A DNA stretch of 26,465 nt from an archaeon (GTDB lineage Archaea; EX4484-52; B79-G9). The stretch's first letter is position 1, and each line of letters starts with the position of its first letter. Shown one piece after another: positions 3,115 through 19,412 of this stretch. The stretch spans positions 1 to 26,465 of the forward strand of contig JBDRKP010000001.1 in assembly GCA_043813875.1 (NCBI GenBank), in the 5' to 3' direction. Below the pieces are notes generated by a model that worked only from the letters and a program-made list of their open reading frames with translations, made no database searches and was not told the origin of the DNA. Made by a program: the position numbers and the translations under genes.

Positions 3115-4023
3115 TCACTTTCCTATAAGTCCGAGCTCAAAAAGCACCTTATCGACCTGCTTCTTGGTATCATCAGTAACATCTATCAGGGGAAGTCTCG
3201 CCACGCCGACCGGTATCCCCATCCTCCTCAGCGCATAATGGACAGGCTGCGGGTTGGTCTCGATGAAAAGCACCCGATAGAGTTCCTTAAGCTTCAGATC
3301 TATCTTTTTGGCCTCATCGTACTTCCCTGCGCGCACAAGCCTGATTACCTCGCTCGTGCGCTTCGGATCCACATTTGCGGCGACAGAAATCCCGCCAGTC
3401 CCGCCTGCCTTGATAATATCAAGATTCAGGCCGTCATCACCCGAGACGACAGAGAACTCAAGATCCCTCGTGCCCTCGATTATTTTTTTGACCTGCTCCA
3501 TATTGCCCGACGCCTCCTTCACGGCGATTATATTCGAAAATTCCTTCGCAAGCCTGATAGTCGTTTCAGCCTCAATATTCTTGCATGTCCTTCCGGGAAC
3601 ATTATAGATGATTATATCTCCGTCAATAGCAGAAGCGACCTTGGCGTAATGCTGGTAAAGACCTTCCTGCATCGGCTTGTTCTGGTAAGGGCTGATCTGG
3701 AGATGCGTGTTTATGCCAAGATCCTCAATCTTCTTTGCCGCGCTGACAGCCTCCCGTGTGCAATTGGAGCCGTCACCGGCAATTATCCTCGTCTTCCCAT
3801 CGACATATTCAAGACAGTTCTCCATAAGCGCGACCTGCTCATCCCACGTCATGGAACTCGCATGCCCGGTGCACCCGGCAACGACAATCCCGTCGACACC
3901 GCCGCGCACCACATGATCGATCAGCTTATTCATCGCTTCCTGATTCACAGGATTATTAAGCCCGTCCCCGTCTTTCATTGGAGTGACAAGCGCAGGATAA
4001 CATCCGCCAAATATTTTTGCCAT
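3115..4023 (-). CDS. dapA: 4-hydroxy-tetrahydrodipicolinate synthase
   Basis: ALVTPM, GCTG, SPYQNKP, IYNVPGRT, VKEASG, SGDD and ETNPQPV motifs. Start moved to ATG 4023 (GGAGG RBS, 1 nt after the dapB stop) rather than 4047. Confidence 0.93.
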   Translation of the reverse strand: MAKIFGGCYPALVTPMKDGDGLNNPVNQEAMNKLIDHVVRGGVDGIVVAGCTGHASSMTWDEQVALMENCLEYVDGKTRIIAGDGSNCTREAVSAAKKIEDLGINTHLQISPYQNKPMQEGLYQHYAKVASAIDGDIIIYNVPGRTCKNIEAETTIRLAKEFSNIIAVKEASGNMEQVKKIIEGTRDLEFSVVSGDDGLNLDIIKAGGTGGISVAANVDPKRTSEVIRLVRAGKYDEAKKIDLKLKELYRVLFIETNPQPVHYALRRMGIPVGVARLPLIDVTDDTKKQVDKVLFELGLIGK

Positions 4024-4024
4024 T

Positions 4025-4789
4025 CTAATCGCCTCCGGTAATTTCATCTAACATATTCTCGAATATGTAAAATCCTTTTTTGCCCGCTATCCATTGGGCT
4101 GCCTGCAGGGCGCCGTCGGCAAATTCCTCCCTGCCGCGCGCAGTCTGCCTTATCTCGACATTGTTTGCCGGGGCATCAAACCCGACCACGTGGGTGCATG
4201 GAATAGAACCGCCCCTGACGCTTGCAAAATGCAGTTCATCCGGCTCAATCCTACGATTAAGGCGGTCAATCACAAGCTTCTTCTTGCGGTCGAAGTTCTT
4301 AAGAAGCACATCCCCTAACTTGATCGCTGTCCCTGAAGGGCTGTCAAGCTTCTGGTTATGATGCAGTTCATAGGCATAGATGTCATACTCCCTGAACCTG
4401 TTGAAAAGCCCTGCGGCATAGGCGCTTATGCGAAACATCAGGTTCACCCCTATCGAGAAATTCGACCCATAGACAAAACCGATACCTGAATCGCTCACGA
4501 TTTTCCTTACCTCTTTCTCCTTATCATACCATCCTGTAGTCCCCACGACAATATATTTCTTAAACTCCGCAAGCTTCTTTATATTGCCCATGATGACATC
4601 AGGGCGCGTGAAATCGATGCACACGTCAACGCCCTCCATGCTCTCCTTATTGATCTCCTTGTACATCTTGCCTTTCCTTTCAATGAAAGGATCAATTATC
4701 GCCTTCACATTGATTTTCCTATCCTCGGCAAGCTTCTCGATGATCTTGCCCATCTTCCCGTATCCTATTATCGCAATATTCAACGCCAT
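4025..4789 (-). CDS. dapB: 4-hydroxy-tetrahydrodipicolinate reductase
   Basis: 254 aa; IIGYGKMG, IDFT, VVGTTGW, NFSIGVN and ELHHNQKLDSPSGTA motifs; GGAGATGA RBS. Confidence 0.95.
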   Translation of the reverse strand: MALNIAIIGYGKMGKIIEKLAEDRKINVKAIIDPFIERKGKMYKEINKESMEGVDVCIDFTRPDVIMGNIKKLAEFKKYIVVGTTGWYDKEKEVRKIVSDSGIGFVYGSNFSIGVNLMFRISAYAAGLFNRFREYDIYAYELHHNQKLDSPSGTAIKLGDVLLKNFDRKKKLVIDRLNRRIEPDELHFASVRGGSIPCTHVVGFDAPANNVEIRQTARGREEFADGALQAAQWIAGKKGFYIFENMLDEITGGD

Positions 4790-5063
4790 ACTATCATCTC
4801 CTAAGATTTACAGACTGACAACTAATAAATATGTATCCGAAAAAAGAAACAGAATGAAAGAAACATGAGGAGAAGTTAAAAACAGAACTGAAAAAACTGA
4901 TTGACTCCTGCAGAATAAAATTTCCGACATTCACCCATGCAATCACTAACTGTTAATGGAAGCGCAATATTTATAAGTTTAATGACAATCGCGCCAAAAG
5001 AGAGAGACAATACAAAAACTGATAGATTTAAGCACTCCATGCGATGATAACATAATCCAAATA

Positions 5064-5071
5064 TTTATAAT
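5064..5071 (+). promoter_or_regulatory. Candidate TATA box for the radical SAM gene
   Basis: TTTATAAT about 45 nt upstream of the GTG; a second AATATTTATAA copy lies at 4966-4976. Confidence 0.4.
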
Positions 5072-5116
5072 GTTTCAATACAGATAAATCACCTTATATC
5101 AAAAAAGTGACAGGAA

Positions 5117-6079
5117 GTGATTATATTGCAACCCAAAAAAATAGATTTTGAGATGCTCCATGTTTTCGTCACAGACAGATGTAACATGCGATGCCCTCAT
5201 TGCTACGTCGACAGCACTGGACGATACACAGACGAGCTGACTACAGAAGAGATGACTGATTTATTTCAGGATTTAAACTCGATCAATTTTACTGACGGCA
5301 TCCATATCGAAGGAGGCGAGCCGTTTCTAAGAAAAGACCTCATCGATATCCTGACTGTCCTCAATGATCTCTCGAAAGTGACGATCGCAACCAACGGCAC
5401 CATCCCGTACAGACCCGAATTTGACGAGCTAAAAGGCATACAGAGAATCGGCTTCTCGGTAGAAGGCGTAACACAGGAAACGCATGCCAAGCTAAGGCCG
5501 AACAACCTCAAGAAGCTTCTTGACAATATGGTATCATTCCAGGACAACGGCTTCAGCATCCAGTCACGGACGACATTGACATCACAGAATTATGGCGAGA
5601 TAGAAGGTATTATCGCGAAAGATGCCGATAGAGGCATACCGATTGCCCGCTTCATGGCATTCACGCCTGTGGGGCGGGGGACCGAGAATCAACACCTCGA
5701 ACTTGACATGCAACAATACAGAAAATCAATAGAAAACTATATCCAGACTGTGAAAAAATACGGCGATAAAGTGATGATAAAATTATCGGTGCCGACACCC
5801 ATTGCAGAAAAACTGGACCTAAAAAACGCCGAAACAGTCGCAAGAATTGAGAGATCCATCTGCTATAAAGGATGCGATCAGGCTGCCATAGCTTCCAACG
5901 GTGATGTATTCCAATGCTATAACAATCTGGGCTATCCAAAAAATAAATACGGGAACATAAGAGACAAAAACTTCAGTGAAATAATATCATCAGATGATTT
6001 TGGCATTAAAACTCAGTGTCCTAATAAATCATGTGTCTCAAAAGAGAGAGGCTACACTCATCTCATCAACAAATCATAG
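5117..6079 (+). CDS. Radical SAM protein with C-terminal twitch/partial SPASM domain
   Basis: CNMRCPHC (CxxxCxxC), GGEP, TNGT, PVGRG; C-terminal CYKGC...NGDVFQC...GNI...CPNKSC; no N-terminal PqqD/RRE-sized extension. Confidence 0.9.
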   Translation: MIILQPKKIDFEMLHVFVTDRCNMRCPHCYVDSTGRYTDELTTEEMTDLFQDLNSINFTDGIHIEGGEPFLRKDLIDILTVLNDLSKVTIATNGTIPYRPEFDELKGIQRIGFSVEGVTQETHAKLRPNNLKKLLDNMVSFQDNGFSIQSRTTLTSQNYGEIEGIIAKDADRGIPIARFMAFTPVGRGTENQHLELDMQQYRKSIENYIQTVKKYGDKVMIKLSVPTPIAEKLDLKNAETVARIERSICYKGCDQAAIASNGDVFQCYNNLGYPKNKYGNIRDKNFSEIISSDDFGIKTQCPNKSCVSKERGYTHLINKS

Positions 6080-6139
6080 AAACGGTGAAGAACAGATATA
6101 AAAAAATCAATAATTCTAAAATCGACAAAAGCGAGATAT

Positions 6140-7093
6140 ATGAAATGCGATAATGTTTTAGATGCTATAGGGCACACTCCACTAGTCAAAATAAACAATT
6201 TCTTGCCAAAAAACAGCCCCGTCAACATATATTGCAAACTCGAATGGCTGAATCCTGGCGGCAGCGTAAAAGACAGGACTGCTCTCGGCCTTATTGAAAA
6301 AGCGGAAAGATACGGCACCTTGAAACCGGGAAGCACCATCGTCGAATCGACATCAGGAAATTTAGGCATTGCCCTCGCGATGGTTTGCGCAATCAAGAGA
6401 TACAGGTTCATATGCGTACTTGACCCAAAAACACCATCAAGCAACATCAATCTATTGAGATCGCTCGGAGCAGAGATAGACATCGTATCTGAAACCGACG
6501 AGACCGGAGGATATCAGAAACCAAGGATAAGAAGAGTCGAGGAGATTGTCAGTTCAACACCAGACTGCATAAATCTCGACCAATACAGCAACGCCGCCGC
6601 AAGAGAAGCGCATTACAGCTCAACCGGCCCGGAAATATATGACGACCTTGAAGGCAAAGTCGATGTCCTTGTAGGAGCCGTAAGCACAGGCGGCCATTTA
6701 TGCGGAACAGCGCAATACCTCAAAAAGAAGATACCAGGCATTACCGTCATCGGCGTGGAACCGGAAGGCTCAGCCATATTCGGTGGCGACCATCACCCCT
6801 ACAAACAGAACGGTACCGGCTTAAGCTTCAGGCCAAAAAACTACATGGCAGAATTCGTCGACATCGAAAAAAAAGTCAGGGACATAGATGCATTTACGAT
6901 GGCAAGACAACTCGCAAAAAAAGAAGGGCTTCTCGTAGGCGGCTCCTCGGGCGGGGTCTTTCATATCGCATTAGAGCATGCAGAAACCCTCAAAAAGAAG
7001 TCGAACATAGTAGTCCTATTTCCCGACGGCGCCACAAAATACGCAGACAACGTATTCTGTGATGAATGGATGAAAGAAAACGGATTCATCTAA
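6140..7093 (+). CDS. PLP-dependent cysteine-synthase-family enzyme, SbnA-like (2,3-diaminopropionate pathway subfamily)
   Basis: NPGGSVKDR (PLP lysine), ESTSGNLGIALA, CVLDPK, DETGGY..PRI, DQYSN, VSTGG and GSAIFGG. The GNLG, DxxGGY and VST features fit SbnA-type enzymes better than CysK. Confidence 0.85.
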   Translation: MKCDNVLDAIGHTPLVKINNFLPKNSPVNIYCKLEWLNPGGSVKDRTALGLIEKAERYGTLKPGSTIVESTSGNLGIALAMVCAIKRYRFICVLDPKTPSSNINLLRSLGAEIDIVSETDETGGYQKPRIRRVEEIVSSTPDCINLDQYSNAAAREAHYSSTGPEIYDDLEGKVDVLVGAVSTGGHLCGTAQYLKKKIPGITVIGVEPEGSAIFGGDHHPYKQNGTGLSFRPKNYMAEFVDIEKKVRDIDAFTMARQLAKKEGLLVGGSSGGVFHIALEHAETLKKKSNIVVLFPDGATKYADNVFCDEWMKENGFI

Positions 7094-7282
7094 TGAGTCA
7101 AAATCCGTCCATTCTCAAGAAAAATCCGCAGCCAAGTGCTTTCTGGAGAAATCGATATTCTTCTTGTCATGGAAACGACCATAGACGACTCAGACAGGGA
7201 CGAGATTGAAAACATGCTTCACACATACGGCATCTCTGCAGTGATTGTCCCGAACATGGCAAAACCGCGATGTCAAATCTAG
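7093..7282 (+). other. Cryptic small ORF or frameshifted gene remnant
   Basis: An ATG overlapping the upstream stop (TAATG) opens a 38-aa ORF (7093-7209). The +1 frame reads like protein (VLSGEIDILLVMETTIDDSDRDEIENMLHTYGISAVIVPNMAKPRCQI; GTG 7136, TAG 7280-7282). Confidence 0.4.
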
Positions 7283-7371
7283 AGTATCAAGAAAAACACG
7301 GAACATAAAACATATATATAAATTTGCCTCGAATATAACTCCACCATATTTTTGAATCACTTTTGTGACGT

Positions 7372-8529
7372 GTGAGTATCGTGTTGATAAAGAGCGATGA
7401 CGGCAAAAAAAGAAAAGCAGTATTTATAGGCGCAGGAAACGTCGGTTCTTCATTGAGAAAGAAAGTATATCAAAATAGCGACAGGCTGGGCCTTGAGCCA
7501 TATGCAACCATCAGAAGAAGCGGCGCATCATATTGCATAGATGATAGCTCAACAACATGGAATAGTGTCCTCAACGAACTGAACACAGGAAACGTCGTCT
7601 TTATCGCAACGCCATCCGACGGTTCCGCCATACCGTACATTGAAGAGGCTCTCAATAAAGGAATATACGTCGTATCATGCGAAAAAGCAGCCGCAGCATC
7701 CAAATATCCTATGCTTGCACCTCACATTGACATTCTATACAAAGACAATGCAAACGTAGGTGGAGACACAGGACTGAAACCAGCAACAAAAGAACTTATA
7801 AACACACAAGGTTTATTTGCCGGATACGACAGGATAGTATACATCCTCAACGGCACGATGGGCCACATACTCAAAAGAATCCCTGAGATAAAGAAAGAGA
7901 TTTATGATTCACTTCAAGAAGCAGAAGAAAAGGACATCATAGCCGAGACAATCAAAACCGCTTTCCAGGAGGTCTGTGATCTTGGTTACGCAGAACCGGG
8001 AAAAGAGTCGCCTCTGGAAATCCTGGAAGAAGAGATTTACGGAGACATCATTAGAAAAGCAGCAATAATGACAAACCATATAGAACACCACATATCCCCT
8101 TTCAACATACCGAACAACTCGCCACAAGATATCAGACACATGGAAAACGTCAATCCACAAAGCATCCTTGATTATATAGCCAAGCTGACAGACAAAAACA
8201 CCAAACTGGTAACAGTCATAAAACAAATCAACGGGCAAGACTTAACAGATTACAAGATAGCAGAATACATAAGAAATGAATTTGCAGTAGAGATAGGATT
8301 TATGGAAAATACTTCAGGCGACCTCGCCATGATTGAAGGCGTACTGAACGGCGCAGTAATCGGAAGAAACGGCACTTACATAAATATCGTGGAACCGAAA
8401 CCTGGCGCCGGAGCAGAAGCAACATCATACCGGATGCTAAAAGACTACTCTGAACTTATTTCAAAAGAGAAAACAATAATAGAAACATATATTGTCCGAC
8501 CGGAAGAGAGAGTACATCAAAGCGCTTGA
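7372..8529 (+). CDS. hom: Divergent homoserine dehydrogenase-like protein (no ACT domain evident)
   Basis: GAGNVG Rossmann motif, ALNKGIYVVSCEK, ANVGG, ILNGT, GYAEP, DIIRKAAI and PGAGAEAT are collinear with HSD motifs; own TATA-like TATATAAA at about 7316-7323. Start codon uncertain. Confidence 0.75.
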   Translation: MSIVLIKSDDGKKRKAVFIGAGNVGSSLRKKVYQNSDRLGLEPYATIRRSGASYCIDDSSTTWNSVLNELNTGNVVFIATPSDGSAIPYIEEALNKGIYVVSCEKAAAASKYPMLAPHIDILYKDNANVGGDTGLKPATKELINTQGLFAGYDRIVYILNGTMGHILKRIPEIKKEIYDSLQEAEEKDIIAETIKTAFQEVCDLGYAEPGKESPLEILEEEIYGDIIRKAAIMTNHIEHHISPFNIPNNSPQDIRHMENVNPQSILDYIAKLTDKNTKLVTVIKQINGQDLTDYKIAEYIRNEFAVEIGFMENTSGDLAMIEGVLNGAVIGRNGTYINIVEPKPGAGAEATSYRMLKDYSELISKEKTIIETYIVRPEERVHQSA

Positions 8530-9947
8530 TTGTGGTCAAACTTATCGATCGCCTTCGCAAAGATCCACCGCGCCATCAAAATCGCACCCACACCCATCAC
8601 AGCCACAACCCCAAAAACTGATTCTACAGGAAAGAACGACGCAGTCACAAGCGCCACAAGCACAGGCAGGCAATAAGCGAAATACTTCACAAACACCCGC
8701 GCATCATAAAGCACGATATTTGGCGTTAGCCCCGCTATATACACAAGAACCGAAAGCACATAAAAAGACACAGAAAACATCAAAAAAAGATTCAGCACCA
8801 ACAAGTCAAGCTTTCCGGCCGCATACGAGACAGAGAACAATATAGCTACAGACGAAAAAGAACTGATGACAGTATAGCTGATGACCTTCGACACCAGCAC
8901 AGAACGCACAGGCACCGGCAGTATCCTGTAATTGCCAAGCGAATCATACTGGTTAAGCCAGTTGTAGATCCCGGTAGATATCACACCGACAACAATCGCA
9001 AAAGTCATGACCGTATTGTTCAGCACAAAAAAATACTTAGAAAACACATTCATCATCACCCACACCATAGCCGCAGGTATAAGATAAGTAAAAAGTATCT
9101 TAGATACGCCCCCGGTAGTCCGATGCATATCGATAAGATCCTTCGCCACAAACGGGGCATATTTCCTTGTGACACGAAAAAGATAGCCATAGACCGGCAG
9201 AAAAAGATCCCTGCCCCTCCTCCTGCTCGCCGAAACAGGCTCACCTGAAAGCAAAAGAAGCGCAACAAAAATCAGTGCAACAGGCAAAAAAAGCGCAATA
9301 AAAAAAGCATCCGCACTGAAACCTGAAAGCAATGAGACCGGCAGCAATAAAGAAGCGATAACATCAGCGCGAAACCATACCTCATAATAGACAAAAGCAA
9401 TATAGGAAAACACCAGAGATGAGAAAAGAAACACCCCCCTGAACCTTGAATACAGCATAGTGATGAAAAAAGACAAAGATATCCCCCACAAAAAAGCCAG
9501 CGTAAACGTAACAAGCATCATCAAAAGATAACCCGCACCAAACCCCCCCAAAAGCAGCGCAAAAGCGATACCGACACCGACAGGCAATATCGAAAGAAAA
9601 AAATAATATATCACATCCTGCAGGGCAAACGTAAGAAGGATGACACGCGGCGACAGCGGAAGGGTCCTCGAAGAATAAAGAAGAAGACTCAAATGGTCAA
9701 ACCGTATATTCAGCGCATCCTTCGCATGCAGCCCGAACACCCCGACAGACACGCCATATACAAGAAACATGAGATGAACAATGACCGCAAGCGCACGCAT
9801 ATCCAGACTGGACTGCATAGCAGAAAAAGACACAAAATAAGAAAAAAAAGCGACAACAACAGGGTACAAGAAAAAGAACTTCCTGTCAAAAGGGGCAGTA
9901 CGCATGCGATACTCCTCTTTCAGCATGGCAGAAAGAAGTTCAAGCAT
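8517..9947 (-). CDS. Multi-pass membrane protein, probable ABC-2-type permease
   Basis: About 12 hydrophobic segments in two similar halves (KEEYR...TLPLS; KDLID...ILPVP); start overlaps the ABC ATPase stop; ATG 9947 preferred over GTG 9956. Confidence 0.8.
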   Translation of the reverse strand: MLELLSAMLKEEYRMRTAPFDRKFFFLYPVVVAFFSYFVSFSAMQSSLDMRALAVIVHLMFLVYGVSVGVFGLHAKDALNIRFDHLSLLLYSSRTLPLSPRVILLTFALQDVIYYFFLSILPVGVGIAFALLLGGFGAGYLLMMLVTFTLAFLWGISLSFFITMLYSRFRGVFLFSSLVFSYIAFVYYEVWFRADVIASLLLPVSLLSGFSADAFFIALFLPVALIFVALLLLSGEPVSASRRRGRDLFLPVYGYLFRVTRKYAPFVAKDLIDMHRTTGGVSKILFTYLIPAAMVWVMMNVFSKYFFVLNNTVMTFAIVVGVISTGIYNWLNQYDSLGNYRILPVPVRSVLVSKVISYTVISSFSSVAILFSVSYAAGKLDLLVLNLFLMFSVSFYVLSVLVYIAGLTPNIVLYDARVFVKYFAYCLPVLVALVTASFFPVESVFGVVAVMGVGAILMARWIFAKAIDKFDHNQAL

Positions 9948-10668
9948 CCCCACCACGGATCATCCTTATAAATACATTCTCAAGCGTCTCATCCTTCTTC
10001 CCCTTGAGATCCGAAAGCTTATCGCACGCCACAACCTTGCCCTTATCGATAATCGCAATCCTCTCGCACAGCTCATCAGCTATCTCAAGCACATGGGTAG
10101 AAAGAAATATCGTATTGCCCTTCTCTGCATACTCCTTAAGATAGACCTTTATCTTCTTCTGCATTATCGGATCAAGATTTATAAGAGGCTCATCGATGAA
10201 AACGACCTTCGGCTCATGCAGGAACGCCTGGGCAATCATAAGCTTCTGCCTCGTCCCGCGCGACAGGTCCTTGCACAGCACATCCTTCTGGTCCCAAAAC
10301 TCAAGCAGCTCGAACCACCTGGAACATTTGGATTCATAACCCTTTATCTTCCTGATTTTCGCCACAAAATAAAGATACTCAATAGCAGTAAGAAAACTCG
10401 GCGGATTCTCCTGCTCCGGAACGATTCCCACATTCGCCCTGACTCTCACAGCATCTTTTGCGCAATCGATACCCAGCACCATTGCCAAACCGCTCGTCGC
10501 CTTTATCTGCCCCGTAAGTATATTTATCATCGTCGTCTTGCCGGCGCCATTAGGCCCGAGAAACCCGAAAATCTCGCCAGGCCCGACATCAATACTGACA
10601 CCAGAAAGAGCGCACACAGACCCATAATCCTTAACAACCGATTCAGCAGAAATTACATGCTTGACCAT
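9940..10668 (-). CDS. ABC transporter ATP-binding protein (ABC-2/CcmA-like exporter type)
   Basis: GPNGAGKTT Walker A, LSRGTRQK signature variant, FIDEP Walker B, STH switch; TTATATA about 25 nt upstream suggests a near-leaderless promoter. Confidence 0.93.
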   Translation of the reverse strand: MVKHVISAESVVKDYGSVCALSGVSIDVGPGEIFGFLGPNGAGKTTMINILTGQIKATSGLAMVLGIDCAKDAVRVRANVGIVPEQENPPSFLTAIEYLYFVAKIRKIKGYESKCSRWFELLEFWDQKDVLCKDLSRGTRQKLMIAQAFLHEPKVVFIDEPLINLDPIMQKKIKVYLKEYAEKGNTIFLSTHVLEIADELCERIAIIDKGKVVACDKLSDLKGKKDETLENVFIRMIRGGDA

Positions 10669-10719
10669 AGATAACCTTTAGTCACAGGAGTATATAATAT
10701 TTTCCCGCCCGAAAATACA

Positions 10720-11199
10720 CTAGCAACAGAGCCCATAAGCCTTGCAACACACATTGCTATAACCTATATTCGAAGGCACGCAAACCGTACCCGCATCGCA
10801 AAGCGAATAATAGGGCAGCAACCTGCCCTCTTTTAATATATAGAAATCCTTCGACTCAAGCGAGATACTATATACCGGAAAATTAGCGTCATAATAAGGC
10901 CTGAAAACCAGATCAAACCAAAGAACATACCCATTTTCCCTTGCAACCTCCTTCTGCATCTGGACGAACTCGTCAATCTCACTCGTATCAGTCAGGTCCT
11001 TCTTTGCAATCTCATAAAGACCCTTCTCTGCCTCCTCGACAGTCCATATCGGATTATTATCCTGCACAACTGAAAATTCAACCTTCGTGCCCTTATAAAG
11101 AGTAGTGCTCAGCATATGTAGAATGATGACAATCATGATTGCTCCAACTAAAAAAAACTGGCCCTTCCTGTATTTACCACAAAAAGACATAACCATCAA
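10720..11199 (-). CDS. Class III signal peptide (prepilin-like) protein with Cys-rich C-terminus
   Basis: RKG/QFFLVGAIMIVIILH; tail LCDAGTVCVPSNIGYSNVCCKAYGLCC has 6 Cys; last gene of the pilus operon. Confidence 0.75.
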   Translation of the reverse strand: MMVMSFCGKYRKGQFFLVGAIMIVIILHMLSTTLYKGTKVEFSVVQDNNPIWTVEEAEKGLYEIAKKDLTDTSEIDEFVQMQKEVARENGYVLWFDLVFRPYYDANFPVYSISLESKDFYILKEGRLLPYYSLCDAGTVCVPSNIGYSNVCCKAYGLCC

Positions 11200-13277
11200 C
11201 CACTCCTGAAATACACCTTATATGGCTGAAACATATCTGAATCCTCAATAAATGTACTCTTCACAAGCACAGACCCGGAAGCACTTGGACTACGCACCAT
11301 ATCAGACGTATGTCTCACAGACCACAGGATCAATGATCGCAGGATATGCCACTCATCATCCGCACTGACATTCCCCTTGATCCACGCAGCTTTTCTCAAC
11401 CCTTTTTTATGATTGACAATCGCAACCGGCAGTCTCCAGCGCTCAGCAAGCGTCCAGTTCACCAGCGTACCATCCACCGCAATGTCAACTTTATAATACT
11501 CAGGCCCTATCCTCACCATATCACCAGTATAAAACGGCCCCTCACCCACATCATTGCATTTATTATTCTGATTCAAATCAATATTCAGCACATTAAAACC
11601 CTTCGACACATTTGTTATGGTAAACGCGTAAGACAGATTCCATGAAGAACTGTTGTATCTATAGCCGCTTCCCGAAAGCAGGCTATTTGAAGAACATACC
11701 CCCAATCCACTCAGAAAATTATTTACCACGAGCATTTCACCTATATCATAGACCGTATTATTATAGTCCGTATCCTGTTCAAGCACAATATACTGTGTAT
11801 CATTATGCACCGAATATAGCTTGTCCGGATACATATTGACAAATTTATGCCGAGACACAGGCCTGATTTCGACAGATCTCCCCCTTTCATCTATCTTCTT
11901 GACCATAAAATCCGTAGAACCGATATTCAGACTATCATCCACCGCCACAATAGCATCATTCGTAAGATTGTGATCTCCATTCGAATCCACCACAACGCGA
12001 TCATATTCATTGCTGGCATTCATCACCAGGACAAAATGCTTCTCTTTCCTGACATCAACTTCACCTAAATGATATATCGAAGATGCATCTTTCGTCCCGA
12101 TTTTACAATATACCGCAGGATTCACCGAAGTATTGACATACCCTATCAATCCGCTCGCAGTATAAGTCGCACAAGCTAAAGACAGATCCGTACAATTCAC
12201 ATGCCCGATATAATAATCCGTATCTCCAAGATAACAATCATACTCAAAATTCGGGCCAGTATCAGTCCAGGTAAGATTATTATATGTGACCCAGCTAAGA
12301 GTATTGACCATAATATTTGTGAAATTGAAATATTTCAAGATCATATTTGTCGGATCAGTAACTGTTTTCGGAACAATGGATATATTAAGGTCATCAGACG
12401 GCCTTATATCAACGTTTTCAAGATACTGAAGACCGAATATCTCTCTCTGGACTTCATCAAGGTTATCCTTTGTTATATTAGCGACTTCAATTATCGATTT
12501 GCCCTCATCCAGGAAAAGATTCAGCCTGGACTTTATTTTCACAAGATCCATATACCTTGGAATTATCAGGACATCAAGATCCATGATATCAGATTCATTA
12601 GTCCTTGCACGTACAGAGATATTAATCTCACGACCATTTATCGAGAGAGTTCTTAATTTATCTCTATAACGCACAACATCTTCTCCACGTATGAACTCGA
12701 CATCCAAAGTAGCATTGACAACAGACGAAAATATCCATATTTCACCGCTTGCATTCACAGTACTGCTCATAGTCCTTGGCCCCTCATAGGCATCATAAGT
12801 ACCACTTTTATCCGAATCAAAATAGATTGAATCATAATCTATTGCGCCATTAGTATCATTATCCACAAGAACGAACTTATGACCCTGAAACGTCGCATTA
12901 TAACAAGGATACTCTGAGGTAACTCCTTCACTCGCGCATGCCACACTAGCAGTAGAAACCAAAACACTCTCATTAGAAAGCACACCGACAATCAGATTCT
13001 GCGCAATAAGCCCATCAGTATACAGGCCATACGAATACCCGACCCCCAGGAAATGCCTCGCAATCTTAACAAACGCAGCAGGCTTATTCTCCACAATCAT
13101 ACCCGAAAGGCCTGCATCATTAAACGAAGAGATAAATTCCCTAGATACCTGTTTCTGTTTCATCTCTGCCCATCCCGTATTAGACTGCGGATATTGTATG
13201 ATTGTTGCAGTATAGCTCAACAGCAAAAGCGCAGCAAGAATGCCTTCAAGTGCATGCATGAACCCCTTAGATCTCAT
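11196..13277 (-). CDS. Large pilin-like/adhesin protein with class III signal peptide
   Basis: MRSKG/FMHALEGILAALLLL; many N-x-S/T sequons; three DxD/N-rich repeats. ATG 13277 (AGGT RBS) preferred over 13292. Confidence 0.75.
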   Translation of the reverse strand: MRSKGFMHALEGILAALLLLSYTATIIQYPQSNTGWAEMKQKQVSREFISSFNDAGLSGMIVENKPAAFVKIARHFLGVGYSYGLYTDGLIAQNLIVGVLSNESVLVSTASVACASEGVTSEYPCYNATFQGHKFVLVDNDTNGAIDYDSIYFDSDKSGTYDAYEGPRTMSSTVNASGEIWIFSSVVNATLDVEFIRGEDVVRYRDKLRTLSINGREINISVRARTNESDIMDLDVLIIPRYMDLVKIKSRLNLFLDEGKSIIEVANITKDNLDEVQREIFGLQYLENVDIRPSDDLNISIVPKTVTDPTNMILKYFNFTNIMVNTLSWVTYNNLTWTDTGPNFEYDCYLGDTDYYIGHVNCTDLSLACATYTASGLIGYVNTSVNPAVYCKIGTKDASSIYHLGEVDVRKEKHFVLVMNASNEYDRVVVDSNGDHNLTNDAIVAVDDSLNIGSTDFMVKKIDERGRSVEIRPVSRHKFVNMYPDKLYSVHNDTQYIVLEQDTDYNNTVYDIGEMLVVNNFLSGLGVCSSNSLLSGSGYRYNSSSWNLSYAFTITNVSKGFNVLNIDLNQNNKCNDVGEGPFYTGDMVRIGPEYYKVDIAVDGTLVNWTLAERWRLPVAIVNHKKGLRKAAWIKGNVSADDEWHILRSLILWSVRHTSDMVRSPSASGSVLVKSTFIEDSDMFQPYKVYFRSG

Positions 13278-13285
13278 ATCATTAC

Positions 13286-14035
13286 CTACCAATAGACTAT
13301 ATCAACCGTAGTTATCCAATTATTATAAGCTGTAAACCTGGTGACTTTCGAACTCGATGCAGACATAGGAGCATACTTACCGCAATCAAGCATATCCACA
13401 CCCAGTATCAAGAACTCTCCGGTTGTATCAATCTTATCAAATGAAAAAGTGTATTTGCCTAACTGGACCGCATCATCCTGCGCCACCACCGCTATCAACC
13501 CCGAACTGTTAAAGACAGCAACAGAATCATAAAACAACGAAGTCGTATTGAATATTGATTCAAAAACATACTCAATACCCCCAATTGTAGAGTTACCGGT
13601 CCTGTTCAGCCCTTTCATATAATCCGTTCTGATAACAGGACTGCTCTTGATGATTATACGAAAATCATCCTGACCGTCAACATAGAACAACTCCTTGAAG
13701 TAGCTGTAATTTGCTCTCGAATAATCATCATCCATTGTCGTTGTATCATCAAAATAATGAAATATTCCGCAGGCACCCAAAGATGCAATCGACTGATTAT
13801 TGACTCGCGTATCATTTTTCAGATAATCCATAACCTCGATACTCAGCGTCCACGCCTCTTCCCGTATAGCATTCTCACGCGATTCATCAAAGTACTTGGG
13901 AAACACCATGATTGAAGCATATATGATATAAGAGACAACCATGATAAATATGCCGAATCCCGCTATAAACTCTATACTCACCTGCGCCTTTGGCTTCATC
14001 TTACCTGCCCTGCATAACAAACGGATTTTTCTCAT
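13286..14035 (-). CDS. Pilin-like protein with QxSxE class III signal peptide
   Basis: KPKA/QVSIEFIAGFGIFIMVV (Q+1, E+5). Start could be ATG 14035 or 13999. Confidence 0.8.
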   Translation of the reverse strand: MRKIRLLCRAGKMKPKAQVSIEFIAGFGIFIMVVSYIIYASIMVFPKYFDESRENAIREEAWTLSIEVMDYLKNDTRVNNQSIASLGACGIFHYFDDTTTMDDDYSRANYSYFKELFYVDGQDDFRIIIKSSPVIRTDYMKGLNRTGNSTIGGIEYVFESIFNTTSLFYDSVAVFNSSGLIAVVAQDDAVQLGKYTFSFDKIDTTGEFLILGVDMLDCGKYAPMSASSSKVTRFTAYNNWITTVDIVYW

Positions 14036-14042
14036 CGTACCA

Positions 14043-15044
14043 CTAGACAAATATCAAAAACACACACAAAGTCGCAGTTACCATAATAGCCGCGTGTTTT
14101 ATGCCGGCCACCGCCCTGCCTTCACCTATGACTCCTGCAAGAATCCCGCTTGAGATACCTTGGGCAAGACACATGAACAAGAAAAGGCTAACGAAATACA
14201 CATGTTCGCAACCCAGCCCGAATGCGCTCCCAAACGAACACATCGCCTGCGATGGAAGCCCCAAAGCATTGCAATTAGCAGAAGGATCTATCGGTGTAGT
14301 TGGATCCGAAAAATTAATAGAAAGCATCGGCACTATCAACTTATATAGCAGTACTATGATCCCAAGAAACATAAAGAAAATGAAGTACATGATATATATC
14401 TGCTGCGACATTATCGCCTTCTTTTCATCCTCGATCTCCTTGATCAGGCCGATATTCATCGCAATCGAATTCATCGTGCTCGCGATATCCCCGCCGGACC
14501 TGAACGACTCATTTATGATAGTGAACGACTGCTTCATGATAGAACTGCCTTTGATCCTTTCACCAAAACGCTGCATGGCTTTCGGAAACGGCAGACCCCA
14601 TGAAACCTGGTTGTCTGCTTTCCTAACCTCCCGGGAAAGAGGCCCATAATCAATATTCGCTGTCATCGTAAGAGCCTGGGGTATAGTCATCCCTCCCCTG
14701 ACTGCTTCCGAAAAGTCCTTCATGAAACGTGGAAAACTATCCTCCATCCTCTTGAAACGGGCATATCCGAAATACTCATATGCTGTTATCGGCACCACAC
14801 CGACAATCATAGCCATAACCAATAACAGAACACTTAAGGTCTGTCCAAAGCTCTTGCAGTCAGGATCAGGCACATCAGAACACTTACAATTGCATTGATT
14901 ATCTGCACTGCATCCGGCATCTTCATCAGTAACTGCTTTCGGCACACTTGTTATCAGCAAGACGATACCCGCGATAAGCATAATGAAACCCAGAGCCAGG
15001 CTGCCAATCTTCAAAAAAGTCGCTTTTTGCATTTTTTTCGTCAT
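14043..15044 (-). CDS. Type IV pilus/T2SSF platform protein (TadB/TadC-like)
   Basis: MEDSFPRFMKD...GMTIPQAL...DYGPLSREV...SWGLPF...SGGDI T2SSF pattern with 5 TM segments; next to the secretion ATPase. Confidence 0.9.
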   Translation of the reverse strand: MTKKMQKATFLKIGSLALGFIMLIAGIVLLITSVPKAVTDEDAGCSADNQCNCKCSDVPDPDCKSFGQTLSVLLLVMAMIVGVVPITAYEYFGYARFKRMEDSFPRFMKDFSEAVRGGMTIPQALTMTANIDYGPLSREVRKADNQVSWGLPFPKAMQRFGERIKGSSIMKQSFTIINESFRSGGDIASTMNSIAMNIGLIKEIEDEKKAIMSQQIYIMYFIFFMFLGIIVLLYKLIVPMLSINFSDPTTPIDPSANCNALGLPSQAMCSFGSAFGLGCEHVYFVSLFLFMCLAQGISSGILAGVIGEGRAVAGIKHAAIMVTATLCVFLIFV

Positions 15045-15097
15045 TCTAAACCCTCATGAAACTCCAGGATATATGGAGCGATACATTCGCCAACACT

Positions 15098-16021
15098 TCA
15101 CGCCTTCACCGATGGAGCGATACCTTTAATCAATATCATGAAACCAAAAGATGCCAAAGGCAAAAATATGAACGATACAAGGAACTGCGCCGCCACAATA
15201 AATACAGTTGTCTTGGGATCCGCACTCATAGAACCCATGATAGTCGTCAATACCATGAAAAACACAGAACCCACTATCACGACAGTTATATACATCTCAA
15301 TATACATGGAAAGCTGCTGCGTAAACTGGGCCAGCCTTCGCTTGTATTCCTGCATAGTGCTGATAGCCTTCTCATGCAGGAATCTCTGAAGATCACCGCC
15401 CACCACCAATATAGACTTGATACCCCAAAAAATATCCCTGAGATGATCTGAGGGGGTCCTGTTCGCAGCATTCTCGATAGCCAATGCAAGATTCACACCT
15501 AGTACATCCGTCTCCTCGATGATCCTCTCAGCTTCCTTCGATATCTCGCCATACTCCTTGAAATTCGCAAGCGCCCGAAACATCGCAATCGGCGGCGTAC
15601 CGCTACCGGAAATAGTCGCAAGATACAGCGTAGCGAACGGCAACGAATCATCTATCCTCTTTTTCCTGTCAGAAACAATAACAGAAGGATAAGTATAAAA
15701 CAACATAAATATACCGGACGATGACAAAAGACCGAAAAGAAACCCCATAAAAACGCTCAGGATAATAGCAGCAGAAATATTAAGAGACGAAGCTGCAATA
15801 TTAAGCAATCCGAATATTATTATCGGCGATATCAAAGACATAGCAAAAAAGACAACAATTGACGTTGCCGCTGCAACAGACAAGAATTCCACAAGAGTCA
15901 TGGAAATATTCGCACGCTCAAGATCCTTATGAAGATCCTTAAATACAGGCACAAGATACTTCCTCGAGAACTGACCAAAATATCTGTACGAATACTTTGC
16001 ATAATCAGTATTTGCATCCAT
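15098..16021 (-). CDS. Type IV pilus/T2SSF platform protein (TadC-like)
   Basis: RKKRIDDSLPFA...YGEISKE...AANRTPS...GGDL T2SSF pattern; starts 1 nt after the ATPase stop. Confidence 0.9.
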   Translation of the reverse strand: MDANTDYAKYSYRYFGQFSRKYLVPVFKDLHKDLERANISMTLVEFLSVAAATSIVVFFAMSLISPIIIFGLLNIAASSLNISAAIILSVFMGFLFGLLSSSGIFMLFYTYPSVIVSDRKKRIDDSLPFATLYLATISGSGTPPIAMFRALANFKEYGEISKEAERIIEETDVLGVNLALAIENAANRTPSDHLRDIFWGIKSILVVGGDLQRFLHEKAISTMQEYKRRLAQFTQQLSMYIEMYITVVIVGSVFFMVLTTIMGSMSADPKTTVFIVAAQFLVSFIFLPLASFGFMILIKGIAPSVKA

Positions 16022-16022
16022 T

Positions 16023-17807
16023 CTATTCTTCCTCTATAATATTCATCACATCTTGAGGGTTAGAATAATATCGCGAAAAAACCTCGCCTACTTCCATATA
16101 ACCTTTTATTCCTTTCTCTTTAAGCCATCTCAACACTTTGATTCGGTTCATGATCTCAGACTTAAGTTTCATCTCAGTTATACCCTCATCCCTGCAAAGG
16201 CGGCCAAGCAATTCCGAATCCTCATCAAAAACAAACACATCGGACGTTGCATCCCATTTAAGCACCCTCGAGCTATCAAGATATTTCTCATCCGCATCAT
16301 AATAATTGATCTCATGGATCTCCGTAGCCCGCCTCACATTATGATTCCTGTACCTGAAACGTTTCGCAAACACTATCAAGTCAAGAGTTTCCAAAAGCGA
16401 CGATGGCAACTGGATTGGCGGAGTCGTAAGACGATCAATCACCTTCTCAAGAGAATCAGCATGCATGGTAGATAAACCTGCATGCCCGGTCGCCATTGCC
16501 TGGAAAAGTATAAACGCCTCCTTGCCCCTGACTTCACCGACAATAAGATAATCCGGCCTCTGCCTCAATGCACCTCTCAAAAGATCAAACATGCTCACCT
16601 CACCCAGCCTCTTATCAGTGCCAGCCACATATGAACTTATGCCTTCCCTTGCGATCTCAGGAATCCAATGCACATGCGGAAGACGCAATTCAGGCGTATC
16701 CTCGATAGAGACGATCTTCATGCCCGGCCTTATAAAAAGCGACAGAGCATTCAGGAGTGTTGTCTTACCGGAAGCTGTCGGTCCGCAGACAAGTATCGAT
16801 CGATTATGCTCGATGACAAACCAAAGATAAGCAAGCATCTTGACATCGACTGTATTAGTTTCCAATAGATGTATCGGCGTCATCGGCTCCTTCGTGAATT
16901 TCCTTATGGTGAAATTCGAACCCCTCTTGGCAATATCTGTCTCAAGCGTAGCCTGAACCCTTGAACCATCTGGAAGAGCTCCCTGAAAAATGGGTTCTGC
17001 AACAGATACAGTCTTGCCGCACCTCTGTGACAACTTCATGACAAAATCATCAAGCTCATCCCTTGTCTTAAAGAATACATCTGACCTCAAAGAACCGTAT
17101 TTCGAATTCCTGTGATATACGAACACAGGAATATCAATACCGTCACAGCTTATATCCTCGATATTTGGATCATTAAGGATAGGTTGGAGACGGTCAAGAT
17201 CGATGAAATTTCTCAAGAGATAATAATAATATTTCTCTTTCTGTTCCGGCGTCATCTTCATCCCATACTGCATTACTATCTGCTCAATCAACTTAATCAA
17301 ATAACCCTTTGCTGCATCTTTATGTACAGACTCAAAATGGACATTTATTTTTTCTACGATGGCATTCTTTATCCGCGAAACATCCCTCATCTCAACTTCA
17401 GTAAGTTCTGGCTCCGAGACACAATATTCCAAAGATTTTAACTCTGGATTCCACTTGATATCCGCCCATGCATAAACCGTTTCATTTTCAGATGGGTCCA
17501 CAGGCGTAAGAGGATAGCGCTCATTTATAGTCTGGGCTTCAGAATAATCAACATCGATACCCTCGCCCCTCGTTTTTTCCAGATCACGAAGAGAGACAAC
17601 TTTATAGTCCTTCTCACGGACCTTCCGCTTCCTCTTAGGCTGCTGCTGCTCTGGCTGCAAACCCTTCAGCACTGGAATAAGCTGATTCACAATACCGATA
17701 TCAATATTAGGATAATCTTGCGCCAGAGAATCCTTCTTTTTTTCCATATGTTTCTTATACCTTGATTTAAAGGCCTTGACACTTTTCTTCAGATTCAATG
17801 TCTTCAT
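16023..17807 (-). CDS. Type II/IV secretion (VirB11/FlaI-family) pilus assembly ATPase
   Basis: IEDISCDG, LPDGSRV, TIRKF, GPTASGKTT, SIEDTPEL, RQRPDYLIVGEVRG and TGHAGLSTMHA. ATG 17807 lies just after the upstream stop. Confidence 0.95.
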   Translation of the reverse strand: MKTLNLKKSVKAFKSRYKKHMEKKKDSLAQDYPNIDIGIVNQLIPVLKGLQPEQQQPKRKRKVREKDYKVVSLRDLEKTRGEGIDVDYSEAQTINERYPLTPVDPSENETVYAWADIKWNPELKSLEYCVSEPELTEVEMRDVSRIKNAIVEKINVHFESVHKDAAKGYLIKLIEQIVMQYGMKMTPEQKEKYYYYLLRNFIDLDRLQPILNDPNIEDISCDGIDIPVFVYHRNSKYGSLRSDVFFKTRDELDDFVMKLSQRCGKTVSVAEPIFQGALPDGSRVQATLETDIAKRGSNFTIRKFTKEPMTPIHLLETNTVDVKMLAYLWFVIEHNRSILVCGPTASGKTTLLNALSLFIRPGMKIVSIEDTPELRLPHVHWIPEIAREGISSYVAGTDKRLGEVSMFDLLRGALRQRPDYLIVGEVRGKEAFILFQAMATGHAGLSTMHADSLEKVIDRLTTPPIQLPSSLLETLDLIVFAKRFRYRNHNVRRATEIHEINYYDADEKYLDSSRVLKWDATSDVFVFDEDSELLGRLCRDEGITEMKLKSEIMNRIKVLRWLKEKGIKGYMEVGEVFSRYYSNPQDVMNIIEEE

Positions 17808-17808
17808 C

Positions 17809-18303
17809 TTAGTAATTATTAACACCCCTCATCAATACCTTTCCATCATCAAACTCAAGCCGAAGCATGTTATCCGCATAAGATAGACCCTGAAGCTCAA
17901 CAGATATATTCTTCTCATTCCAGATTTTATTATTGTCGTGTATCAATATCCTTTTTTTGCTATCCTCGCCAAGAATAGTATACGCCTCTCCACCAATCTC
18001 ATCGGGTAGTCTGATCGTTACATGGCACTGTGTGCAATCCATGCTATCCAGCGATGCGATATATGCTTTGAGATATCCATTAATCTCCTCTGCCTGTTCA
18101 TCCTGGACAAATTCAAGTATTTTATCATTAAGAGAATTGAAAATAAAGATTACCCCTGCAATTATTATGACCCCTAATGTGAACATCATCATTTCTTCAA
18201 GTACAAGGACCTGGCCCTTCCTTACTTTTTTACTAGCTAGGTCTGGCTTCCGGCCACAACAATGATTATATAGTCCATGAGTCATTATATCATCGCTGCT
18301 CAT
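17809..18303 (-). CDS. Pilin-like protein with class III signal peptide
   Basis: KKVRKG/QVLVLEEMMMFTLGVIIIAGVI; LPDEIGGEAYTI motif seen in archaeal minor pilins; ATGA overlap with the upstream gene. Confidence 0.8.
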   Translation of the reverse strand: MSSDDIMTHGLYNHCCGRKPDLASKKVRKGQVLVLEEMMMFTLGVIIIAGVIFIFNSLNDKILEFVQDEQAEEINGYLKAYIASLDSMDCTQCHVTIRLPDEIGGEAYTILGEDSKKRILIHDNNKIWNEKNISVELQGLSYADNMLRLEFDDGKVLMRGVNNY

Positions 18304-19205
18304 GACATTGAAATGAATACCTTTGTCTCAATCAGGTCTCCGCCATACTTCGACCTTTCACCACTTATTTTCGGATTATCATCACGTCGTATATTTATCC
18401 TATGCTGTCCGGGACCCAAAACATTGTTGCCGTCACGTGTTAATTGTATCCGGTAACCATCATTGCCCGGGCTTGATATATCATCAAGTTCCCTGTAGAC
18501 AAGACGATATGTAGTCTTGAAACGATCACCAGCAGACTCACTTCTTGCGATTATGACTCCTGCCTCATCAGCGCCCATGATGCCTGCCCTCTCTCTTTCA
18601 GGGCCAAGTATAAGCGCCTGGCCGTCAATATCCTCAGTCGGCGTGCAATCGATATGATGTACAAGATATGTATCGCCATCAAGCGTAAATCTCTGCCCCT
18701 CACTATAAGTAGCCTCTATTGATGATTCGGTACATGTCGATAGTACGACCTGTGCCGGACTGCAAGAAGAATTCATCATACAGCTAACATCATCATTGAT
18801 GCTCACTGTCCCGGACCCTCCATCTGCTTTCACCGCAGCCATATCTTCCTGTACGGGTGTTGTTCCGCCGACAAGAGGCACCCATGCAGTGGTCGCGATA
18901 TTCAGGCCTCTCGTAACCACAGAATAGCTCAATGAATTGTCATCGTCAAGCACAAGATCGCCTGCAAGCTCAAAAGAGACTGTTTTTTGCTCTCCTGTCA
19001 CTGCGACATCATCAATCTTATCCTTCAGCAACACCATCAAACTCTCCGCCTTCTCATTATCAGACGACGTCTGTCCCTTCTCTATCAAAGGAACACCCCA
19101 CATATATGTGGAACCGATAATAGCAATCAAAATACCAGTTATAAGAATAATGGATATAACCTGTGATTGAGCTTTACGAACCATATCACACTTTAATAAT
19201 CTCAT
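18300..19205 (-). CDS. Pilin-like protein with class III signal peptide (first gene of the pilus operon)
   Basis: RKA/QSQVISIILITGILIAIIGSTYMWG. Start ATG 19205 (GGTGG RBS) or 19184; the 19274 start in the track lies inside the hairpin region. Confidence 0.8.
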   Translation of the reverse strand: MRLLKCDMVRKAQSQVISIILITGILIAIIGSTYMWGVPLIEKGQTSSDNEKAESLMVLLKDKIDDVAVTGEQKTVSFELAGDLVLDDDNSLSYSVVTRGLNIATTAWVPLVGGTTPVQEDMAAVKADGGSGTVSINDDVSCMMNSSCSPAQVVLSTCTESSIEATYSEGQRFTLDGDTYLVHHIDCTPTEDIDGQALILGPERERAGIMGADEAGVIIARSESAGDRFKTTYRLVYRELDDISSPGNDGYRIQLTRDGNNVLGPGQHRINIRRDDNPKISGERSKYGGDLIETKVFISMS

Positions 19206-19223
19206 CTTTACCACCTTCCTCTC

Positions 19224-19412
19224 ATGCCCGAAACACACAGGCATATTCATCCCAAATATAAAGTGAAGGCACATAATTTAAGCAAAGTGCCTCCCCATAT
19301 CCTTAAAATTGCAAGGCAATTTTAGGATCCAGCGAATCGGGGATTCGCTCGGATAGGTCAAGGCAACTTGGTTTTTGGCGATATTTGCTCATTTATTTCA
19401 TGCCTTGACTAT
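19224..19412. repeat. Chain of five inverted repeats (candidate structured RNA leader)
   Basis: Stems at 19224-19244, 19267-19292, 19299-19328, 19327-19354 and 19353-19412, checked by hand. Confidence 0.7.

Follow-up and report, generated by a model that had tools for sequence, protein, structure and literature searches.

A radical SAM enzyme paired with an SbnA-type enzyme in an uncultured groundwater archaeon: probable makers of an unusual amino acid by an undescribed route

Introduction

The phosphoserine-dependent beta-replacement enzymes typified by SbnA provide building blocks of siderophores and antibiotics, and in the examples covered here they work with an SbnB-type partner of the ornithine-cyclodeaminase family that depends upon nicotinamide adenine dinucleotide (NAD). 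SbnA/SbnB, and likewise SulH/SulG, CmnB/CmnK and ZmaU/ZmaV, form L-2,3-diaminopropionate from O-phosphoserine and glutamate. The present analysis concerns a two-gene locus in which an SbnA-like enzyme dependent upon pyridoxal 5'-phosphate (PLP) is encoded directly downstream of a radical S-adenosylmethionine (SAM) enzyme. The genes lie at positions 5117–7093 of a stretch of 26,465 nucleotides (hereafter the window, meaning the whole stretch analysed) from contig JBDRKP010000001.1 of the archaeal assembly GCA_043813875.1. The original prediction, made from the sequence of the window, read them as a candidate new pathway to an amino acid-derived metabolite.

The locus resembles SbnA/SbnB in the fold of its PLP enzyme, the superclade to which that enzyme belongs, its catalytic lysine, its equivalents of SbnA residues Arg132, Tyr152 and Ser185, and its organisation as a two-gene unit. 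It differs in its archaeal host, in having a radical SAM enzyme rather than an NAD-dependent SbnB as the partner, and in that no siderophore or non-ribosomal peptide synthetase (NRPS) consumer was found in the host genome. We propose that the pair constitutes a two-enzyme small-molecule pathway, in which a phosphoserine-dependent beta-replacement would be combined with radical chemistry on a small molecule, and we place the probability of this reading at roughly 0.5. The pair probably makes an unusual amino acid by an undescribed route; no description of a radical SAM/SbnA-type pair was found in the full-text literature, supplements lying outside the search.

The host is an uncultured, small-genome archaeon of groundwater. 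Its assembly (G000) comprises 1.64 Mb in 90 contigs and is 91.5% complete, and its archaeal character is evident from an archaeal-type phosphoenolpyruvate carboxylase (TIGR02751, 555.6 bits) together with FlaI/ArlJ-like pilus genes. Comparisons across the phylum were made with 42 species genomes, all of one order and including that of the window; the relatives within the genus are 68–89% complete.

The gene pair and its recurrence

The radical SAM gene (5117–6079, plus strand) opens with GTG and encodes 320 amino acids as called, while the PLP gene (6140–7093, plus strand) opens with ATG and encodes a fold-type-II enzyme of 317 amino acids with a single PALP domain. As originally described, the genes are co-oriented and 60 nt apart (6080–6139). 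The true start of the radical SAM gene is likely the TTG codon at 5126, given the Shine-Dalgarno-like word AGGAAGTGA upstream at 5112–5120; this start would yield a protein of 317 amino acids, in agreement with the recorded form. A putative archaeal promoter and ribosome-binding region for the pair (5064–5120, plus strand), assigned by position in the sequence only, begins with a TTTATAA box at 5064–5070. A second, similar word, AATATTTATAA (repeat family D8), is found at 4966–4976. No terminator-like site was called in the A-rich 60-nt spacer by the promoter and terminator scan used, which is of bacterial type and uninformative for an archaeon. Prediction of a complex between the two proteins, run without controls, was uninformative (score 0.00).

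The radical SAM family is very small. A word-based search of 5.8 billion clustered proteins (398 matches) recovered five relatives at 61–66% identity and one at 37%, followed by a fall to 30%. When 1.84 billion representatives were searched exhaustively with a profile, two orthologue-level clusters emerged, at 567 and 356 bits; the next match scored 193 bits, and 70 proteins lay at E ≤1e-30. Only generic radical SAM clusters were recovered from the ESM Atlas, and among the matches listed from a profile scan of genome contigs with the family alignment there were superfamily members at 22–37% identity only. Within the phylum the orthologue was present in 1 of 42 genomes, that of the window, and in none of the other 41.

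The PLP enzyme recurs alongside these rare relatives. Three further contigs carry both proteins: radical SAM P0005 with PLP P0125 (Logan, 24016 bp), P0006 with P0124 (ENA, 2627 bp) and P0008 with P0129 (Logan, 3589 bp). Co-occurrence was inferred from a common source and an identical contig size in bp, each protein having been seen on exactly one contig. The partner PLP orthologues share 71%, 64% and 56% identity with that of the window and their identity ranks run parallel to those of the radical SAM proteins, so that the association holds at divergence down to 37% for the radical SAM enzyme and 56% for the PLP enzyme. The 2627-bp contig has room for little beyond the two genes. Because the partners recur three more times on contigs matched in source and size, the adjacency of the two genes is more than chance. 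The JGI contigs L093 and L094 stop within the radical SAM gene or shortly beyond it, and the genes upstream of it are unrelated, being oxidative-stress genes in one and a glycosyltransferase gene in the other; the radical SAM gene is therefore the first of the unit, and there is no conservation of what precedes it.

The PLP enzyme

The PLP enzyme matched Pfam PALP with 239.9 bits and carries no CBS domains. Among NCBIfam profile hidden Markov models (HMMs) the SbnA equivalog TIGR03945 ranked first with 320.6 bits, though this falls below its cut-off of 349.95. Three plasmid proteins named SbnA by the Prokaryotic Genome Annotation Pipeline (PGAP), from L169, L170 and L173, score 405.7, 412.6 and 357.2 on the same model, and sbnB adjoins sbnA in the first two. 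Only one of 22 close homologues of the PLP enzyme, P0128, reaches the cut-off (350.8). The enzyme shares its fold with the cysteine synthases CysK and CysM and with cystathionine beta-synthase (CBS) cores, and scores some 220–312 bits on their models. It nevertheless lies below every curated cut-off: 312.1 against 510.25 bits for CBS (TIGR01137), 279.6 against 344.15 for cysKM (TIGR01136), 261.4 against 350.95 for TIGR01139 and 219.3 against 394.2 for TIGR01138. By sequence, its closest solved relatives are CBS cores at 243.6 bits, with SbnA at 209.5. No close homologue was found in 401 genomes of one bacterial order at E ≤1e-85 (0/401).

A quick IQ-TREE analysis of 60 rows joined the clade of the window enzyme (6 rows), the P0129 clade and the reference SbnAs with an SH-aLRT support of 97, and held CBS separate with a support of 99. 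SH-aLRT is the only support available for this tree, in which long reference branches make the finer order unsafe.

In Staphylococcus aureus SbnA, residues Arg132, Tyr152 and Ser185 are credited with the selective binding of O-phosphoserine, and Lys47 is the PLP lysine (PMC12414870). With numbering taken from the 5D84 alignment, the columns of Lys47, Arg132, Tyr152 and Ser185 read K, R, Y and S in the window enzyme and in its close homologues alike. The R/Y/S triad occurred in 73 of 129 aligned rows; the corresponding columns read S/F/G in a Bacteroides CysK, gap/F/G in a Nostoc CBS and K/F/G in a paralogue from the same archaeal genome. A further report describes contacts from SbnA Arg132, Lys100 and Arg224 to citrate resembling glutamate (bioRxiv 10.64898/2026.06.04.730285). 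The Lys100 column is conserved but does not discriminate (K in 123/129 rows), and arginine at the Arg224 column is confined to three rows of 129, those of the PGAP-named SbnAs. These residues are read as a conserved phosphoserine site beside an altered second-substrate site. The enzyme is thus, by its sequence, a member of the SbnA superclade that is neither a true SbnA nor a CysK, CysM or CBS. The original description of an SbnA-like enzyme holds as regards superclade and phosphoserine residues and does not extend to the equivalog or to the Arg224 position. The objection foreseen there, that the PLP enzyme might be an ordinary cysteine synthase, can be set aside on the HMM scores, the triad and the superclade.

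A route through sulfur has nevertheless to be considered, in which the PLP enzyme would be a phosphoserine sulfhydrylase or would form thioethers in the manner of CBS and the radical SAM enzyme would supply or handle the sulfur partner, implying an accessory module for cysteine or a thioether amino acid. The CBS and cysteine synthase scores lie close behind that of SbnA, CBS cores are the best solved relatives by sequence, and the second-substrate loop contains Tyr-Lys as in the CBS rows. In addition, SkfB, the solved structure nearest in fold to the radical SAM enzyme, makes thioethers according to the title of its entry. A gene of the CysK/CysM type is, however, already present in the host, on contig C43 (cysKM 323.5 bits, CysM 316.4 bits), where it adjoins an EamA transporter gene. 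Genes of this type occur in 20 of the 41 other phylum genomes, at 34–43% identity to the window enzyme, which on this comparison is not the housekeeping cysteine synthase. The use of cystathionine is also improbable, since the genome has no real Cys_Met_Meta_PP enzyme (weak partial matches only, the best at 36.6 bits). Finally, the triad groups the PLP enzyme with SbnA rather than with CysK or CBS, as does its separation from CBS in the tree. Taken together, these data make the sulfur route unlikely.

Of 8 genomes of the genus, only that of the window gave cysK-like matches at E ≤1e-20, two in number; the others are incomplete to the extent given above. Other SbnA-type units were seen on Bacillus plasmids. 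In L169 a gene with a ParB N-terminal domain (3161–3922) lies just upstream of the SbnA-type gene; in L186 such a gene (3321–4085) is also upstream but is separated from the SbnA-type gene by one for a DMT transporter. In S. aureus, SbnA is fed by SbnI, a serine kinase with a ParB fold. The window pair has no ParB-domain gene accompanying it. In L173 (3971–6724), a plasmid of Bacillus wiedmannii, the PGAP-named sbnA adjoins a gene for a second SbnA-like 'cysteine synthase family protein' with the loop GPYLQQGPG and an R/Y/G triad, and also a gene of the acyl-CoA dehydrogenase family. The 10.9 kb examined there contain no sbnB, making this another SbnA-type unit with a partner other than SbnB.

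The radical SAM enzyme

Membership of the radical SAM superfamily is clear from Pfam (Radical_SAM, PF04055, 76.9 bits against a cut-off of 29.5), and the protein also matched Fer4_12 (27.5 bits) and, over residues 249–295, SPASM (25.0 bits against 21.5). The CX3CX2C motif is formed by C22, C26 and C29 within CNMRCPHC. Five C-terminal cysteines follow, arranged as C249...G262xxxxC267...C301xxxxC306, of which C267, C301 and C306 are invariant across an alignment of 6 family members. SPASM proteins carry a seven-cysteine motif, whereas the twitch motif consists of a CX9-15GX4C hairpin and two further cysteines without the CX2CX5CX3C block. As only a CX4C (C301xxxxC306) lies beyond the hairpin, the cysteine pattern places the enzyme in the twitch type, predicted to hold one auxiliary cluster and not a full SPASM domain.

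A total of 63 NCBIfam families matched the protein below threshold, and none of the best 25 of the 63 attains its cut-off. The highest scores were those of tetrapyrrole enzymes of the NirJ, AhbC and AhbD kind (109.7 for NirJ2, 91.1 for AhbD, each against a cut-off of 500, then 87.6, 84.6 and 75.2), yet these amount to about a fifth of cut-offs of 500–650, and no haem d1 or Ahb genes are present in the window. Assignment to a characterised family such as Ahb/NirJ, raised by the original prediction as a possible objection, is therefore not indicated.

An AlphaFold2 model based on a 69-row alignment had a pLDDT of 92.6. VIA-align returned Z scores of 26.5 for SkfB, 24.6 for SuiB, 22.1 for PqqE, 22.0 for viperin, 21.2 for anSME, 21.1 for MoaA, 20.7 for BlsE and 20.5 for CteB, and Foldseek concurred (SkfB, PDB 6EFN, E 2.4e-16). 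Sequence comparison placed GDGT-MAS (47.5 bits) and SkfB (46.5 bits) first among solved structures. Z scores for BtrN and SpeY, which are twitch dehydrogenases, were only 13.2 and 11.7, and no sequence match to either was found at E ≤0.001. The enzyme resembles them in its predicted single auxiliary cluster following an N-terminal CX3CX2C, its small size and its lack of a recognition domain, features that make BtrN and SpeY a mechanistic model for an SbnB-like oxidation. The analogy to BtrN drawn in the original prediction is nevertheless weak in structural terms, the model being nearer to SkfB-type enzymes.

This likeness raises the alternative of a radical SAM enzyme that acts on a peptide or protein in the manner of anSME, SkfB or SuiB, possibly on the PLP enzyme itself, which would then be either a substrate or a tailoring enzyme. 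The top structural matches include maturases of proteins or of ribosomally synthesised and post-translationally modified peptides (SkfB, SuiB, PqqE, anSME and CteB), which share with the model a radical SAM core and a C-terminal cluster domain, and the maturases WgkB, StsB and PapB are among the NCBIfam matches below threshold. Identity to the structural matches is however 14–22%, and the small-molecule families NirJ2, AhbD and MoaA score as high as those maturases or higher. Alignment of the model to SkfB, SuiB and CteB begins only at residues 88–91 of those chains, its own CX3CX2C starting at residue 22, so that the protein lacks their N-terminal peptide-recognition domain. No precursor peptide gene was found: the stretches that precede the radical SAM gene in L093, L094 and the window have no small open reading frame (ORF) in common. 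Downstream, where small ORFs were inspected in the window only, an acidic ORF of 48 amino acids with a GTG start (7136–7282, plus strand) occupies part of the 278 nt that follow the PLP gene and had no Pfam match. Neither of the features expected of such a maturase, a recognition domain and a neighbouring precursor, was thus seen, and we consider peptide or protein maturation a poor candidate.

Proposed pathway

Under the small-molecule pathway favoured here, the PLP enzyme would bind O-phospho-L-serine and eliminate phosphate to give the PLP-aminoacrylate, to which a nucleophile would be added to yield a beta-substituted alanine. O-Phosphoserine can be supplied by the phosphorylated serine route, since the genome encodes SerA (603.5 bits, above the cut-off of 454, split across two contig ends); the SerC_1 model found nothing in the genome, which has four class-V aminotransferases. 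The nucleophile would probably not be glutamate, or would be bound differently, because the Arg224 position is altered; that change and the score below the TIGR03945 cut-off make glutamate doubtful as second substrate.

The radical SAM enzyme would be the dedicated partner of the PLP enzyme and would act on a small molecule. In one option it oxidises or cleaves the adduct, taking the place of the NAD-dependent SbnB of 2,3-diaminopropionate synthesis; in the other it makes the nucleophile. Enzymes of the BtrN and anSME type carry out two-electron oxidations, which offer an analogy for cleavage of the adduct. The enzyme would abstract a hydrogen adjoining the adduct's secondary amine (or thioether) and pass the electron to the auxiliary cluster, and either 2,3-diaminopropionate or a novel beta-substituted alanine would be released. 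The idea of the enzyme as a stand-in for SbnB that works without NAD and by radical chemistry is, by this analogy, tentative and rather doubtful.

The SbnB family itself (PF02423) had no matches in the 91.5%-complete genome, a control having matched in 8 of 14 genomes, which extends to the genome the original observation that the window lacks an ornithine-cyclodeaminase-like gene. That observation, which also covered NRPS and NRPS-independent siderophore synthetase genes, was upheld by a scan of 22 window ORFs, in which the ornithine-cyclodeaminase, NRPS and IucA/IucC families had no match. The genome likewise gave no matches to IucA/IucC (PF04183) or to the NRPS condensation domain (PF00668).

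Several observations weigh against a joint pathway. The spacer at 6080–6139 may hold an internal promoter of its own, given the word GATATAAAAAAA within it. In the window clade the Arg224 position is Tyr, in the loop PYKQNGTGLSF, which argues against SbnA's own reaction, and the solved folds nearest to the radical SAM enzyme (SkfB, SuiB and PqqE) are those of peptide-modifying enzymes. Co-occurrence on the three other contigs is indirect, by match of size and source rather than by DNA. P0004 and a near-copy of P0006 are uninformative as to the partner, since their contigs stop within the radical SAM gene or shortly beyond it, and P0007 had no size-matched PLP partner among the 120 PLP rows listed. 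That two unrelated genes travel together with no common pathway, as would be allowed if the A/T-rich word in the spacer were a separate promoter, is more improbable still than the alternatives above, the association persisting to 37% and 56% identity on contigs whose other visible neighbours differ.

The reading of the locus as a pathway accordingly stands on the three points on which the original prediction had staked it: the pair recurs, the PLP enzyme is distinct from ordinary cysteine synthases and the radical SAM enzyme falls outside Ahb/NirJ. The anatomy of the genes, their rarity and co-occurrence, the clade and conserved residues of the PLP enzyme and the lack of an SbnB-family match in the genome are direct observations; the substrate, the order of steps and the product are inferred.

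Genomic neighbourhood

Upstream of the pair, on the minus strand, lie lysA, dapA and dapB, the last present in 12 of 16 genomes of the family. Comparison by tblastn with five relatives from the genus placed the pair in an insert of about 5.9 kb (4790–10719), lacking in those relatives, at a variable spot between dapB and a pilus-type cluster. In four of the five relatives dapB is followed by orf159, orf698 and that cluster, and the corresponding gaps measure approximately 470 bp (G007), 940 bp (G003), 2.1 kb (G006) and 4.9 kb (G005), with unrelated secreted proteins inside; the fifth, G001, has other genes after dapB. The window and the relatives' loci (L164–L168) thus present an insertion hotspot of about 470 bp to about 5 kb in the relatives, with different cargo in each genome, examples being large secreted proteins, argG-like and aminotransferase-like genes and the cassette of the window. 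No direct or inverted repeats convincingly frame the insert, and neither an integrase nor a tRNA gene was seen with it; the window as a whole gave no Rfam matches and no tRNA genes. Four DNA sequencing runs yielded short contigs only, with no joints across the insert. The cassette was probably acquired horizontally.

Besides the pair and the 48-amino acid ORF, the insert holds a Homoserine_dh-like gene and genes for an ATP-binding cassette (ABC) ATPase and a membrane protein of 479 amino acids. The pair alone among these is co-conserved elsewhere, and it forms a unit. The Homoserine_dh-like gene (7372–8529, plus strand), the hom of the original prediction, encodes a protein of 385 amino acids that opens with a Rossmann GxGxxG motif and matches Homoserine_dh only weakly (31.3 bits). 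The canonical hom of the genome is on contig C23 (201.5 bits). The divergent gene is absent from 7 other genomes of the genus, and the search of 5.8 billion proteins returned no homologue (among 5409 candidates, one match, itself); its product is perhaps an orphan dehydrogenase, or else a paralogue that evolves fast. Lacking homologues, it cannot be co-conserved with the pair and was rejected as a stand-in for SbnB. The position of the pair between the dap genes and hom was correctly reported, but because the site is an insertion hotspot and this hom an orphan paralogue, the setting is accidental and without functional meaning. A 20-nt word at 5095–5114, immediately before the start of the radical SAM gene, recurs with 90% identity at 7466–7485, in the 5' part of the same gene, which may be chance.

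The DrrA-like ABC ATPase and the overlapping polytopic membrane protein, which has no Pfam match, are encoded at 8517–10668 on the minus strand. A role for this transporter as exporter of the pair's product was considered and rejected, because the permease is sporadic (4 of 41 other phylum genomes) and none of the genomes bearing it has the radical SAM gene. The cluster that follows (11196–19274, minus strand) resembles those of type IV pili or archaella and shares 59–78% identity with the genus relatives. Its genes encode a FlaI-like ATPase, two T2SSF/ArlJ-like proteins, DUF7266- and DUF7289-like proteins and a protein of 698 amino acids without a family.

Biological significance

The pair is very rare and is known from uncultured organisms only. 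Its conserved association of an SbnA-type enzyme with an unclassified radical SAM enzyme, with neither SbnB nor an obvious consumer, points to new processing of the adduct or to a new non-proteinogenic amino acid. If the radical SAM enzyme does replace SbnB, this would be the first radical SAM-coupled beta-replacement pathway, found in uncultured archaea with small genomes. The pair would also provide the first functional handle on a small orphan family of radical SAM enzymes.

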